From contig OZ244170.1 of NCBI GenBank assembly GCA_965216565.1, forward strand, positions 3,648,001-3,712,000: a stretch of DNA of 64,000 nt, in the 5' to 3' direction. The DNA comes from Bythopirellula sp. (lineage in GTDB: Bacteria > Planctomycetota > Planctomycetia > Pirellulales > Lacipirellulaceae). Shown here one piece after another: positions 5,662 to 53,429 of this stretch. The notes beneath the pieces are model-generated. The model made no database searches. It was not told where the DNA came from and saw only the letters and a list, made by a program, of their open reading frames with translations. Numbering within the stretch: position 1 is the first letter of the stretch; each line of letters begins with the position of its first letter. The position numbers and the translations under genes are program-made.

Positions 5662-5695
5662 TGCGCGAGTGTTGCGATTATTCAACACTTGCGCA
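5662..5695. promoter_or_regulatory. Intergenic dyad TGCGCGAGTGTTG-N8-CAACACTTGCGCA
   Basis: 12/13 matching arms in a divergent, AT-rich intergenic region. Confidence 0.45.
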
Positions 5696-14765: not shown

Positions 14766-14781
14766 CGGCATGAAACTTGCA
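14766..14781 (+). promoter_or_regulatory. Candidate sigma-54 (-24/-12) promoter CGGCATGAAACTTGCA
   Basis: GG-N10-GC spacing with GGCAYG-N4-TTGC. Confidence 0.6.
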
Positions 14782-14934: not shown

Positions 14935-15588
14935 ATGATGAAGCAACAAACCCAAAATTTGAAAAACGATGAATCACTCGTTGTGGACTTTACTGACCAC
15001 ACCGATGAGCAATTGTTTCGCCAATATCGCGAATCGGAAGATTCGTTGATATTTACCGAGTTGGTCTCACGTTACCAACGTGAGCTATATAATTATTTGC
15101 GACGTTTTCTCGGCGATGCCGCCATGGCCGAGGACGTGTTTCAGGCAACTTTCCTACAGGTCCACGTCAAACGCGAGTTATTCCAGTCGGGTCGCAAGTT
15201 TCGACCCTGGCTCTATACCATCGCCACCAACCAAGCCATCGACGCACAGCGCCGCAACCGTCGGCACAAGCGATTGAGTCTCGACCAGGCTCAACGCACT
15301 AGCGGTGAAGAGATGGGTACGTTGATGGACATGGTAGCGACGGGCGACTCCACCCCCTACGAGCAAGCGGAAAAAACTGAGCAAGCCGAGTGGATTCGCG
15401 CGGCTGTCGATAACTTGCCAGAAACCTTGCAAAGCGCTGTCCAGCTAGTTTACTTCCGAGGGATGAAATACCGTGACGCTGCAAAGATTATGTCAGTGCC
15501 TGTGGGAACGGTTAAGAGCCGCCTACATTCAGCACTGCAGAAGCTTGGGCAATCGTGGCGGGACGTTCAGCCTCAAGAAATGCGTTGA
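14935..15588 (+). CDS. ECF RNA polymerase sigma factor
   Basis: AEDVFQATF, FRPWLYTIATN, VPVGTVKSRLH. Confidence 0.93.
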   Translation: MMKQQTQNLKNDESLVVDFTDHTDEQLFRQYRESEDSLIFTELVSRYQRELYNYLRRFLGDAAMAEDVFQATFLQVHVKRELFQSGRKFRPWLYTIATNQAIDAQRRNRRHKRLSLDQAQRTSGEEMGTLMDMVATGDSTPYEQAEKTEQAEWIRAAVDNLPETLQSAVQLVYFRGMKYRDAAKIMSVPVGTVKSRLHSALQKLGQSWRDVQPQEMR

Positions 15589-15726
15589 TCTTCAGTCGGA
15601 TACAATTGGCCAGCTTCAATTGTGCCCCGTCAACTCCACATCCAACACAACCAACCGCAAGCCCGTCATCTCCATGGCGGGCTTGTGTTTTATCAATGAC
15701 GACTTCTCGATTCGGAGGTGCAACCG

Positions 15727-16725
15727 ATGAGAGACCAACTGCTTGCCTATCTACTCGACGACCTCGAGCCCAAACAGCGCCAACGCGTCGAAGAACACAT
15801 CGCCAACGATCCCACCTGGCAACATGAATTCGAAAAGTTAAAGTCCTGCCTGGAATCGGGCGAAGAGCCGCCAGAAAAAACAACTTGCCCACCACCCGAC
15901 TTGGTACAAAAGACGTGCTCATTAGTGCGTCTCTCCGATAGCCAGGGGCCGCCTGGATCTTTGAGTGAGGCTCGCGAATGTTGCTCCAATCGCCGCCGCT
16001 GGACGTTACTCGACTTGAGCATCGGCGCTGCGATCTTCGTCGCGATGGGTGCCCTGCTCTTCCCCGCCTTGGTCGAAAGCCGTCGCACCGCCCGTCGCCT
16101 GCAATGCCAGGATAATCTCAAGGAGATCGGCACCGCATTGATTAAATCGCACGAAGTCCAAGGTGAAGGCCTCCCCCATATCGGCTACCACGAGAATGCT
16201 GGGATGTTCGTTGTGGAACTGGCCGAACGCGGAACGATCGATCGTGGTGAGCTGTCTCGATTTCTTGTCTGCCCCAGTTCAGATCTGGCCGATGAAGTCT
16301 TCCAGGGTCGAACCGTATTGCGGATTCCGACTCGTCAGGAACTCCGCCAGCTTTCGCGTGAAGCTCTTACCGAATTGCGGCAACACATGAGCGGCAGCTA
16401 TGCCTATCAGTTTGGCTATCTCGACTCCGACGGCTCCTACCTGCCCATGCCGTTTGTAGGACGCAGCGATGTGCCAATTCTTGCCGATCGCCCCAACTTG
16501 TCAGCCTCGGGCATGGAAAGTTCCAATCACGGCGGTTGCGGGCAGAATATTTTTAGCCAGGACGGCAGTAGCCGATTTCTATCAACCTGCGAGTCCGATG
16601 AGTGTGTTGGGCATCCTTTTCTCAACGACGACGGTCGGCATGCTGCCGGCAAGAGCGAGCGCGATAACGTGCTCGGCCGCAGCGATGCGACGCCCGCGGG
16701 CTCGGTCATTCCACTCGGCAACTAG
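15727..16725 (+). CDS. Putative anti-sigma factor fused to a prepilin-like/DUF1559-type domain
   Basis: N-terminal LLAYLLDDLEP...VEEHI; RRWTLLDL + TM + ESRRTARRLQCQDNLKEIG; C-terminal NHGGCGQNIFSQDG. Confidence 0.8.
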   Translation: MRDQLLAYLLDDLEPKQRQRVEEHIANDPTWQHEFEKLKSCLESGEEPPEKTTCPPPDLVQKTCSLVRLSDSQGPPGSLSEARECCSNRRRWTLLDLSIGAAIFVAMGALLFPALVESRRTARRLQCQDNLKEIGTALIKSHEVQGEGLPHIGYHENAGMFVVELAERGTIDRGELSRFLVCPSSDLADEVFQGRTVLRIPTRQELRQLSREALTELRQHMSGSYAYQFGYLDSDGSYLPMPFVGRSDVPILADRPNLSASGMESSNHGGCGQNIFSQDGSSRFLSTCESDECVGHPFLNDDGRHAAGKSERDNVLGRSDATPAGSVIPLGN

Positions 16726-16788: not shown

Positions 16789-16989
16789 CTAGTCCTCATC
16801 AGATGCAGCCTTTCGATTGAGGAAGATACCAATACCGAATAGTGCCCCACCGACAAGCATCATTGGTAGTATGACTGACCGCCCGACTCCCAAGTCTTCG
16901 AGGCTCTCCTGGGGTATTCGCCGCAACACTGCCATGATGCCTACTATTGCCACTCCAAGTCCCGCGAGTAGCGTTCCCAAAATCTTCAT
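16789..16989 (-). CDS. Small two-TM hypothetical protein
   Basis: 66-aa ORF from ATG 16989 with two hydrophobic helices. Confidence 0.6.
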   Translation of the reverse strand: MKILGTLLAGLGVAIVGIMAVLRRIPQESLEDLGVGRSVILPMMLVGGALFGIGIFLNRKAASDED

Positions 16990-17115
16990 CGAAGGTTCTC
17001 CCAAAGTATTGTGCTCGTGACGGTCTGGTCTATTGAGCACCATTGCCAAGTGTAGCCAGGCGATGAACTTCTTGTAAGTTCGCCAATCCGCATCAATTCC
17101 TTAGACCTGTCTAGG

Positions 17116-17267
17116 CGGGTGCCATGCCCACGCATGGGGAGGCTCGATATCCGTTGGCTCGTCAAAACACATGGCCACACGGCTTCTCGGTAAGGTTACG
17201 CGTGGGCATGTGGTGCACGTGTTCATCCCGTAGGCCGTCGCCCTATTCGGCGTGGCCATGGCACCCG
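17116..17267. repeat. REPIN/MITE-like element with 18-bp terminal inverted repeats
   Basis: CGGGTGCCATGCCCACGC (17116-17133) vs GCGTGGCCATGGCACCCG (17250-17267), one mismatch; internal partial copies. Confidence 0.75.
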
Positions 17268-17441
17268 GCGATGACTGCGGTCGCCGCGATGGCCCACTTC
17301 AGTGTTAACAGGTTGCCCCGGGGCATCAGGGGCGTCCCCCAGGCGTTGCGAAAGTGCCACATTTGGGCGAATTGGCAAAGCCGGTTAGCCGGGCGGGAAA
17401 CTCAATTTTCCACTGATATTTCAGCATTTATGGAATTCCTG

Positions 17442-17470
17442 GGAACTTCTGGAACTCGCTTGGCATCCAA
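17442..17470 (+). promoter_or_regulatory. Candidate ECF promoter GGAACT-N16-CATCCAA
   Basis: Differs by one -10 base from the promoter at 53452-53480. Confidence 0.6.
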
Positions 17471-17475
17471 ACTGC

Positions 17476-17686
17476 AGAAGAGAAAGACAACTTCCTTCAT
17501 TAGCCCCCCGTTTCATGGCCGCTCTCCCCACTGGGGAGAGCGGTAATTACAACCTCCCAAGCGAGACGAGTAAGAGACAGCCGCCGAACTTCCTTCCTCC
17601 CGAAGTTCGGCGGCCTTTATGACACCCTCCCAAGACCGCGATGGAGAGCCCTGTCCCCTCGGGCTCTCGTCGCGGTCTTTTCTTTT
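17476..17686 (+). ncRNA. Candidate sRNA with three GC-rich hairpins, C/U-rich loops and an intrinsic terminator
   Basis: Stems 17519-17543, 17580-17614 (13 bp perfect, loop CTTCCTCCC), 17632-17679 followed by TTCTTTT; promoter immediately upstream. Confidence 0.6.
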
Positions 17687-17892
17687 CGTTGGTCAGAGCA
17701 CTGCCTCGCAGTGCCGACAAATCGAATCCCCCTGCGTCAGTGTCCCACGTCGTGATGCTGACACAAGTTGCGATCCTTTCGACAAATTGTCGCGGGATAA
17801 TTTCCAATGGAAGATCCCACGCTCCCCATGTTCGGTGGGAAGGCTTTTTTTGTGGTACCATATCTAATGGGGGCAAAGGGCGGAGGGATAAT

Positions 17893-18981
17893 TTGGGTCG
17901 GCCGTTCTATTTCATTTTGCTGGTAGCCATTCTGCAGGTTTGGTTATGGGCCCCTTGCCCGATGGCATTCTGCCAAGCACCAACGCCGCCCGAGGTGTTG
18001 CCCTCAGACCAAAATTCGCGGGAACACCGGGGCCTTGCCATTCTTCGAATTTCCGAGCAACTATTAGACCGTCTGCTCGCCAAGGACATCGATAAGCATT
18101 CAGAGGTCGATCGCTGTGTGTTGGGCACACGGGCCTTAGGAACAGCACACACTGCGGGGCAAGCTGACGTTGATCCCAAACCGAACAAGGACGATGCCTC
18201 TTTCCAAATAACCGTCACTGGTGAAAGCCGATCGAAGACGGTAGGTCGCAACGGACCGGCAATTATTCACAGCCGTTCGGTCACAAAGTGGGAAGTGAAA
18301 AAGAATGTGCACTTCGACGAAGGAAAGTTCTATACCCAACCGGGAACCATCGAAAGCAAAACGAAACTAATTCCCACAGGCATTGATGCAACCGTGCCAG
18401 GACTCCGTCGCCGACTTGTGAAAAGAATTGCTAAAAAGCGTTTGCAAGAACAACGCTGCCAGGCGGAGCGGATCACGGAAGGGAAAACCCGGGAACGAGT
18501 GCTCCATCAAGTCGACAAGGCGATTGATGAGCGGATTGATCGATTGAATGCACGAATCCAGTCCCGACCAATTCTCAATAGAATATTGCCGATGCTCGAT
18601 TCGCGGGCCGTTGATGTGTACACCAGCGAAAATTGCATCCATCTTGCATTCATGGGAAATAACGAAGCCACCGCCGTTATTTGCCCGCTAAATCGCTTAG
18701 AGCCCACCGAATCTGAACTGTGGATTCATGCCTCTTCTCTGGGGCTGCCGATTCTCGAACTTCCAAGCCTGATCGAGTTGCCGGGCGCCGCCGACAAATG
18801 GCTGAACGACAATTTATCGAAGCTCGATCTCCCAGCACCCATCGTTCCCGGACCCGATATTTCCGGTCTGGATGAATTAGCGCCGCTAAGCTTTCAGCTC
18901 GTCGACGGATGGGTTGTCATGCAGTCAAAACCCGCGGCACCAACGGCGAATAAGTCCGTTCTTTCTGACCGTCAGCAATAA
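17893..18981 (+). CDS. Secreted hypothetical protein
   Basis: Long ORF; in-frame TTG at 17893 follows GGAGG and gives a signal-peptide-like N-terminus. Confidence 0.7.
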   Translation: MGRPFYFILLVAILQVWLWAPCPMAFCQAPTPPEVLPSDQNSREHRGLAILRISEQLLDRLLAKDIDKHSEVDRCVLGTRALGTAHTAGQADVDPKPNKDDASFQITVTGESRSKTVGRNGPAIIHSRSVTKWEVKKNVHFDEGKFYTQPGTIESKTKLIPTGIDATVPGLRRRLVKRIAKKRLQEQRCQAERITEGKTRERVLHQVDKAIDERIDRLNARIQSRPILNRILPMLDSRAVDVYTSENCIHLAFMGNNEATAVICPLNRLEPTESELWIHASSLGLPILELPSLIELPGAADKWLNDNLSKLDLPAPIVPGPDISGLDELAPLSFQLVDGWVVMQSKPAAPTANKSVLSDRQQ

Positions 18982-52829: not shown

Positions 52830-53429
52830 TCATCCAGTCACGTCTTCATCCTGCAACATCGCTTGTAATTGGTCTTTCAATTGCACACGCGCACGAAACA
52901 AGCGACTTCGGACAGTGCCTACCGGTACGTCCAGGATGTCGCCGATTTCTTCGTACGAGCAGCTTTCCATTTCACGCAGTACCAGAATCTGTCGATGCTC
53001 TTCGCCAAGTTCTAGTAGCGCCTGCTGTACCAATTGTGCACGCTCTTTCTGTTCTAAATCCTGTTCCGGCCCTTGGAGTTCGTCGATCGGCTCTTCGCCT
53101 AGCTGATCCTTCGCGGCATCGACCGAAACTACAGGCCGTTTCTTGCGACGCTGGCTCAAAGAGAGATTGATCGCAATGCGGTACAGCCATGTGTAAAATC
53201 GGGCGTCGCCTCGAAAGGTATCGAGCTTCACCAGCGCCTGCACAAACGCGTCTTGTGCCAAATCGCTGGCATCGTGTCTCGATCCGGTAAACCGGACCAA
53301 GGTATTAAACAACCTGTCTTGGTATTTTTGCACCAGTAGCCCGAACGACTGCGTGTCGCCGCTAAGGGTCGCCTGAACCAGTTCGGCGTCGTCCAATGGA
53401 GTTTCGTCCGGGGGGGGTTCGTGGCTCAC
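52830..53429 (-). CDS. ECF RNA polymerase sigma factor (RpoE/SigW-like)
   Basis: DAELV, ASDLAQDAF, FYTWLYRIAIN, SYEEIG, VPVGTVRSRLFRAR; GTG 53429 chosen because it lies downstream of the promoter. Confidence 0.93.
   Translation of the reverse strand: MSHEPPPDETPLDDAELVQATLSGDTQSFGLLVQKYQDRLFNTLVRFTGSRHDASDLAQDAFVQALVKLDTFRGDARFYTWLYRIAINLSLSQRRKKRPVVSVDAAKDQLGEEPIDELQGPEQDLEQKERAQLVQQALLELGEEHRQILVLREMESCSYEEIGDILDVPVGTVRSRLFRARVQLKDQLQAMLQDEDVTG

Follow-up and report, generated by a model that had tools for sequence, protein, structure and literature searches.

A candidate sigma54-dependent hairpin RNA of Pirellulales planctomycetes with seeds that covary with the Flp pilin ribosome binding site

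The window, a stretch of 64,000 nucleotides of a Bythopirellula sp. genome, contains an ECF sigma factor and anti-sigma factor gene pair (14935-16725, + strand; assigned by Pfam), which served as a synteny marker, and a gene on the same strand whose true start is likely near 17893 (17893-18981). Between them lies a predicted small RNA (sRNA) of about 200 nt (17487-17686, +; predicted ends), preceded by a sigma54 -24/-12 promoter whose box is shared with the homologues (17461-17475, +; predicted +1 at 17487), an ECF-type promoter-like site, GGAACT-N16-CATCCA (17440-17470, +), and two sites for a bacterial enhancer-binding protein (bEBP). The main enhancer site (17342-17363, +), an imperfect palindrome of the type TGTTGC-N6-GCAACA, is centered at about -135 and scores 18.1 on the family matrix, and a weaker upstream site (17309-17330, +) scores 10.7. 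An earlier note on this DNA, which had read the locus as an ECF-dependent stress sRNA, overlooked the sigma54 box and both enhancer sites. The anti-sigma gene lies upstream of the RNA in 16 of 63 loci. Also present in the window are a sigma54-type box 5' of the ECF/anti-sigma pair (14766-14781), an 86-aa open reading frame with a hydrophobic stretch between the anti-sigma gene and the RNA (16789-17049, -; not seen in syntenic relatives), nested inverted repeats with arms of 18 and 11 nt 5' of the enhancer (17116-17267), probably a REP-like element, and a second terminator-like hairpin with a U-run just 5' of the downstream gene (17825-17850).

The segment 17487-17686 has a predicted folding energy of -90 kcal/mol (z = -8.3), and none of 200 shuffles folded as well; counted from the ECF site, the predicted RNA would be about 211 nt long. 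Its C/U-rich 5' segment (17487-17512, +), which corresponds to the seed region of the family, is unpaired in the predicted folds, and the 10-nt core of this segment occurs again at 17587-17596. The three strong hairpins described in the earlier note are all present, with a correction for the first, which has 12 bp rather than 11. Hairpin 1 (17518-17544, +; 3-nt loop) was not seen in relatives, and it has its core in common with a dispersed palindromic repeat, seven further copies of this core occurring elsewhere in the genome. Hairpin 2 (17580-17614, +) is a perfect 13-bp stem with the loop CUUCCUCCC at 17593-17601, this genome's best partner for the pilin Shine-Dalgarno sequence. Hairpin 3 (17632-17686 including the U-tract, +), which defines the family, combines a 19-bp stem with one bulge (17632-17679), the loop UGUCCCCUC at 17652-17660 and a U-tract that reaches 17686. 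It is the sole match in this genome to R1, the covariance model of the hairpin, and with its U-tract it is likely an intrinsic terminator, missed by a simple terminator scan because the loop exceeds 8 nt. The two linker copies reported earlier were recovered at 17546-17561 and 17619-17634 (both +); each carries CCUCCC, and together they form a direct repeat (D4) whose copies are 88% alike. The window's copy, with duplicated modules, is the longest seen, and the window has four to five redundant CCUCC-type modules.

An open reading frame starting at ATG 17641 runs through hairpin 3, and the earlier note had named translation as part of this frame as a possible refutation. Homologues align only from residue 86 of its product or later, which puts the likely gene start near 17893 and makes the RNA region non-coding; translation from 17641 was ruled out on this ground. 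The downstream gene is itself unrelated to the RNA family.

A BLAST search of the region against 61 genomes gave matches mainly to the 3' hairpin, and a hairpin pattern search of a species collection returned at least 120 loci. Divided by record name, the pattern matches listed comprised 66 planctomycete and 54 other loci, the latter taking in one Phycisphaeraceae record and unnamed 'bacterium' records; among these listed matches, strong stems were formed by 63 of the 66 planctomycete loci versus 9 of the 54 others. The loop that defines the family is GUCCCCUC. When 82 hairpins with 10-nt loops were aligned without gaps, both sides were seen to change in 11 of 14 stem pairs and 92.9% of cells were paired, far above the level of slid controls, while the invariance of the inner stem and loop is partly a matter of construction, both having been set by the search pattern. 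In a sample anchored on a neighboring protein, the exact loop was present in 18 of 50 loci, a few others having variants and many having none. Family stems contain 96 G-U versus 12 A-C pairs, an excess that identifies the + strand as the RNA strand.

The covariance model gave a single match in each of 51 of the 151 Pirellulales genomes searched, matches in 39 of 120 family genomes, and none in 149 genomes outside the order; these counts are lower bounds, because the 9-nt-loop variant of the window's genus scores weakly. Class-level pattern matches in two families (f29 and f31) had neither stem nor promoter and were dismissed as chance. The family is, on this evidence, confined to Pirellulales planctomycetes, the order to which the named records also assign it. 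Its occurrence within the window's genus is patchy, with the RNA at 9 of 26 syntenic loci and shortened at some of them, and three genus members carry a shifted loop, CCCUCC, which is simply an anti-Shine-Dalgarno sequence. Rfam gave no gathering-level match for the window or in 10 homologue loci. Comparative evidence indicates that the RNA is real, and the covarying family and the lack of an Rfam match bear out the earlier proposal of an undescribed planctomycete non-coding RNA.

A YGGY-N8-TGC (-24/-12) box was found upstream of 63 of the 66 planctomycete matches listed versus 9 of the 54 chance matches, and of 6 of the 66 in an antisense control; it was likewise found in 29 of 30 covariance-model matches and in 46 of 50 gene-anchored loci. 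The box positions that the search pattern left free agree with the known sigma54 -24/-12 consensus, and the window's own spacer departs from the family matrix. Further upstream, the palindrome GTTG-N8-CAAC occurs in 52 of 105 regions, clustered near -146. An enhancer matrix, whose training set included the window's promoter, gave scores of 10 or more for 104 of 105 homologue promoters, as against 1 of 105 shuffles and one of the 81 distant regions, and all of 10 held-out promoters scored 13-25. The genome contains rpoN and 16 strong bEBP matches, and no match to Hfq was found in it. The near-universal box and enhancer indicate that the conserved driver of the RNA family is sigma54, not an ECF factor.

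The ECF comparison made in the earlier note concerned a second ECF gene (52830-53429, -; Pfam; orthologues in 87 of 89 family genomes), and the resemblance is there: TGGGAACT begins at 17440 (GGAAC core at 17442) and is followed, after 16 nt, by CATCCAA at 17464-17470, while TGGGAACT-N16-CGTCCAA lies upstream of the ECF gene. In 29 orthologues the autoregulatory consensus of this ECF factor is GGAACT-N16-CRTCNA, with A at the variable position 2 of the -10 element in 4 of the 29 promoters. The window's site fits this consensus (20.6 bits, rank 5 genome-wide) and in its strict form is one of only two one-mismatch sites with a 16-nt spacer in the genome, against none for two control patterns; a loose ECF pattern was not significant in the window, its 3 matches being reached by 11 of 100 shuffles. 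Additional intergenic matches to the consensus, which make up a small candidate regulon, were noted at G000:C1:1704090, 4457060, 851541 and 2409519. By matrix, an ECF-type site is present in 1 of 107 homologue promoters, that of the window, and it was found in none of the 66 planctomycete pattern matches listed, 30 covariance-model matches and 6 metagenome relatives. Moreover, the CATCC of the supposed -10 element falls within the sigma54 -24/-12 box. Given this single occurrence and the overlap with the -24 box, the site is at most a lineage-specific second promoter; the chances that it is real and recently gained appear roughly even, and ECF control, proposed in the earlier note for this RNA, is not supported as the general driver of the family.

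In this genome the pair of enhancer and box also precedes genes for an acyltransferase, a GNAT protein, a Wzc-like ATPase, a sugar transferase, a group 1/2-type sigma70 factor and a cupin. Single examples were found in relatives before Wzz, GNAT and the sigma factor; a gapped enhancer-plus-promoter pattern gave 13 matches in five genomes versus 22 in a reversed control, so that the search supports conservation of the regulon in no more than a few examples. The genes sharing the pair point to an exopolysaccharide programme and surface attachment rather than to envelope stress. Sigma54 boxes without this enhancer precede genes that we take to be groEL-, dnaK-, groES- and csrA-like. The occurrence of sigma54 boxes at such chaperone and csrA-like genes accords with passages of PMC12316311. 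About 50 intergenic matches to the enhancer matrix were noted in G000:C1, many of them without a sigma54 box, including one in the window at 5668-5689.

A gene for a 290-aa protein lies directly downstream of the RNA, on the same strand, in 54 of 63 loci, so that in most families the hairpin sits in its leader, and promoter and enhancer remain with this gene where the hairpin is absent. Searches of this genome did not recover the gene. The hairpin of close relatives adjoins a convergent ABC-transporter gene, which leaves nothing downstream to be regulated in cis, and in one genome (G122) the RNA and the 290-aa gene are both kept, 110 kb apart. Of the 22 loci without the gene, 13 have a U-tract after the hairpin, as against 12 of the 60 that are linked to it. 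Judged by sequence, the RNA is a standalone non-coding unit with its own predicted promoter and terminator. Part of the Lacipirellulaceae has lost the 290-aa gene, and the RNA has gained a U-tract; the loci may be read as successive snapshots, from leader to standalone to seed-amplified RNA, of how an mRNA leader gives rise to an sRNA. The 290-aa protein gave no significant Pfam, NCBIfam, PDB-sequence or Atlas match. Its structure model is all-helical (pLDDT 88); Foldseek returned nothing at E<=0.001, and the best VIA-align result (Z 7.7, rmsd 4.4, 144 aligned) reflects a common helical arrangement. The gene, noted at L041:550-1425 (-), has orthologues in 79 of 201 class genomes and is mostly single-copy; both in the Pirellulales and in another planctomycete family it is preceded by this sigma54 promoter and enhancer.

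The complement of the invariant loop occurs at none of 3977 called starts in this genome (78 genome sites), and no common gene emerged among its 105 sites in five genomes. It was this search that pointed to the Flp pilin (PF04964), which was recovered from 132 of 151 Pirellulales genomes, so that the pilin lead is post hoc and not the outcome of a planned screen; the exact complement of the loop is present in 1 of 81 pilin loci. The pilin leader contains a c-di-GMP-I-GGC riboswitch. In G000:C1 the Flp pilin gene lies at 829430-829914 (L481:931-1413, -), with the riboswitch about 230-300 nt 5' of the start, and riboswitch-like motifs recur in many Pirellulales pilin leaders. In the window's family the pilin ribosome binding site (RBS) is typically GGAGGA(A)UGC just before the AUG, a motif present at 1 of the 3977 starts that a crude gene finder called in this genome, namely that of the pilin, and the recurrent 5' motif of the RNA, GCAU(U/C)CUCC, is its complement. 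YCUCC occurs in 34 of 36 5' regions of the window's family (shuffle mean 13) and shows little enrichment in other families (18 of 71 versus 11 in shuffles).

Seed-pilin pairing was compared in 45 of the 46 genomes with both sequences, one being left out for a 5' region shorter than 14 nt. Within the window's family (29 genomes), cognate pairs beat non-cognate pairs in 10 of 11 genera, with a permutation p of 0.0007 that overstates the case because the genera are related and not independent; outside it (16 genomes, 13 genera) no cognate signal was found (p = 0.29). Other Shine-Dalgarno-like starts of the same genomes gave a residual of -0.56 +/- 0.47, itself negative, versus -1.80 for the pilin, a value as low being reached in 1 of 200 draws. 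Matching changes on both the seed and the RBS side were seen in G032, G029/G328, G021 and G037. In the window's own copy the best pilin duplex, of 7-9 bp, is formed through loop 2 (7 bp and -11.7 kcal/mol for the hairpin 2 loop), which is weaker than the family mean (residual +1.9), and 12% of 766 Shine-Dalgarno-bearing starts of this genome pair as well as the pilin. The RBS motif of the pilin persists in genus members without the RNA. We conclude that an accessible seed covaries with the pilin RBS at the family level, and modestly so for the window's copy, and that this target does not account for what the invariant terminal loop does. The anti-Shine-Dalgarno-like, C-rich seeds of the earlier note thus covary with one RBS, that of the pilin, while no support was found for the GGAGG at 17882 that it had named as a possible target. 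The csrA paralogues were rejected as targets, as 23 csrA starts of three relatives gave no consistent pattern; in this genome one of 12 csrA genes pairs at 13 of 14 nt with linker 2. Among the 12 CsrA-domain genes of G000:C1, three have long C-terminal extensions (246-266 aa) and two lie behind sigma54 boxes.

Vibrio Qrr, Pseudomonas CrcZ and Myxococcus Pxr are sRNAs transcribed from -24/-12 promoters under enhancer-binding proteins, and GlmY has an overlapping second promoter. GlmY/GlmZ and the Campylobacter flagellar sRNAs likewise combine a -24/-12 promoter with an enhancer-binding protein. The present RNA resembles none of these sRNAs in sequence or by Rfam; it differs from them in phylum, in its seeds and in its predicted target, and here an origin from an mRNA leader is traceable. 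The Rhodopirellula-1 RNA motif is multi-copy and also proteobacterial, whereas the present RNA is single-copy and restricted to one order; the two are set apart by description only, and the published alignment of the motif could bear on novelty. Its table row presents it as a candidate structured RNA of Planctomycetes, without an Rfam number (PMC2864571). A literature search of titles and abstract openings, with most subscription journals outside its scope, returned no planctomycete regulatory sRNA and none matching this RNA.

Passages on the alphaproteobacterial cuckoo RNAs (CcsR1-4 and NfeR1; ar14, RF02344) describe C-rich anti-Shine-Dalgarno loops, variable stems and modular repeats (PMC4615179, PMC10746234), and the present RNA resembles them in its C-rich anti-Shine-Dalgarno loops on variable stems, its modular repeats and the predicted occlusion of an RBS. 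Rfam ar14 matched the window only weakly, below threshold, at 25.1 bits against a gathering score of 58.8. Cuckoo loops all carry CCUCCUCCC, which none of the window's loops does (a 3-nt loop, CUUCCUCCC with one mismatch, and UGUCCCCUC), and unlike in the cuckoo RNAs it is GUCCCCUC that is conserved as a loop, single-stranded linkers holding most of the seeds. Cuckoo RNAs consist of 2-4 adjacent hairpins; the window has three, with long linkers, and most homologues have 1-2. Where cuckoo RNAs are driven by RpoH (CcsR) or by sigma70 with LsrB/NtrC (NfeR1), the driver here would be sigma54 with an enhancer, in a single planctomycete order and in a genome without an Hfq match. By analogy, the RNA would work like the cuckoo and NfeR1 RNAs without being a member of their family, so that the likeness drawn in the earlier note would hold for the mode of action and fails, on loop motif, score and distribution, for kinship. 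Passages on the PEP-CTERM/PrsR regulon describe a conserved enhancer and -24/-12 motif before exopolysaccharide-associated genes, an arrangement similar to the one found here; the motif is proteobacterial with a spacer of about 63 nt, shorter than here, and these passages list no PrsK/PrsR for Rhodopirellula and describe no sRNA (PMC1569441).

We favor, with a confidence slightly above even, a reading in which the hairpin RNA behind the sigma54 box and enhancer acts in trans, independently of Hfq, covering the pilin RBS and shutting down pilin translation during the exopolysaccharide programme. An unlikely alternative is an anti-Shine-Dalgarno sRNA of the NfeR1 kind with many weak targets, the pilin being one of them or incidental. 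The redundant CCUCC-type modules of the window's copy and the numerous Shine-Dalgarno regions that pair as well as the pilin in this genome would fit such an RNA, and NfeR1 is described as acting on multiple mRNAs through redundant loops (PMC10746234); the cognate covariation with the pilin, seen in 10 of 11 genera, and a seed whose GCAU extension matches a site unique among 3977 starts speak against it. It is distinctly unlikely that the invariant GUCCCCUC loop is instead a protein-binding site, with the hairpin regulating the 290-aa gene in cis from its leader in most Pirellulales and persisting, where that gene has been lost, as a sponge for protein or as a remnant. The adjacency of that gene in 54 of 63 loci, the U-tract in only 12 of 60 gene-linked loci, the retention of promoter and enhancer by the gene where the hairpin is absent, the failure of the search to yield an RNA partner for the loop and the 12 CsrA-domain genes are all in keeping with it. 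Yet loop and stem persist after gene loss, gaining a terminator and extra seeds, and the loop has become a plain anti-Shine-Dalgarno CCCUCC in three genus members; CsrA, moreover, binds GGA, which is absent from the seeds of this strand. An antisense, CsrB-like reading was ruled out by the G-U asymmetry and the promoter strand, the GGA-rich strand being the opposite one, and GGA is not enriched in family 5' regions (6 of 36) as a CsrB/Rsm-type sponge would have it.

That the RNA is mainly ECF-driven in this organism and serves an envelope-stress regulon seems very improbable to us: the site does fit the autoregulatory consensus (20.6 bits, rank 5 genome-wide), but only 1 of 107 homologues has it, half of it comes from the sigma54 -24 box, and the window's enhancer sites are intact. 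A terminator or repeat-derived palindrome devoid of RNA function is scarcely credible, even though the core of hairpin 1 is common to seven dispersed repeats and the hairpin adjoins a convergent gene end in relatives. The single copy per genome, the invariant loop and the covarying stem disfavor it, as do the dedicated promoter and enhancer 40-190 nt upstream and a strand asymmetry that points away from the convergent gene.

In the favored reading, that of a sigma54-dependent repressor of pilin translation, one of about 16 enhancer-binding proteins would activate the RNA and the exopolysaccharide genes together, transcription would start at 17487 and terminate at 17686, and open C-rich seeds would pair with the pilin Shine-Dalgarno sequence in vivo, so that cover of the RBS would lower pilin synthesis and tie the RNA to an attachment-to-biofilm switch. 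Sequence comparison shows the family, its strand, structure, promoter box and enhancer, as well as the co-occurrence of the promoter type with exopolysaccharide genes, gene loss with U-tract gain, and, in the window's family, seed-pilin covariation. Having multiplied its anti-Shine-Dalgarno modules, the window's copy is likely to have additional targets, and it may have acquired an ECF promoter. A fuller history, which we put forward tentatively and consider doubtful as a whole, would be that an ancestral Pirellulales leader hairpin of a sigma54 mRNA became an independent sRNA in one family after gene loss, gained a terminator and seeds co-evolving with the c-di-GMP-riboswitch-controlled Flp pilin mRNA, and, free of Hfq, retracts pilus synthesis as the exopolysaccharide regulon fires, the window's copy having gone one step further by multiplying its seeds and capturing an ECF promoter.

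The finding yields an RNA family that extends across the order and whose promoter is defined, an enhancer motif shared with an exopolysaccharide regulon, a concrete and testable target in the Flp pilin, and what may be successive snapshots of an mRNA leader turning into an sRNA. Cultured genera of the Lacipirellulaceae make tests feasible, and, if true, the proposed mechanism would give a direct handle on the switch from attachment to biofilm in planctomycetes.
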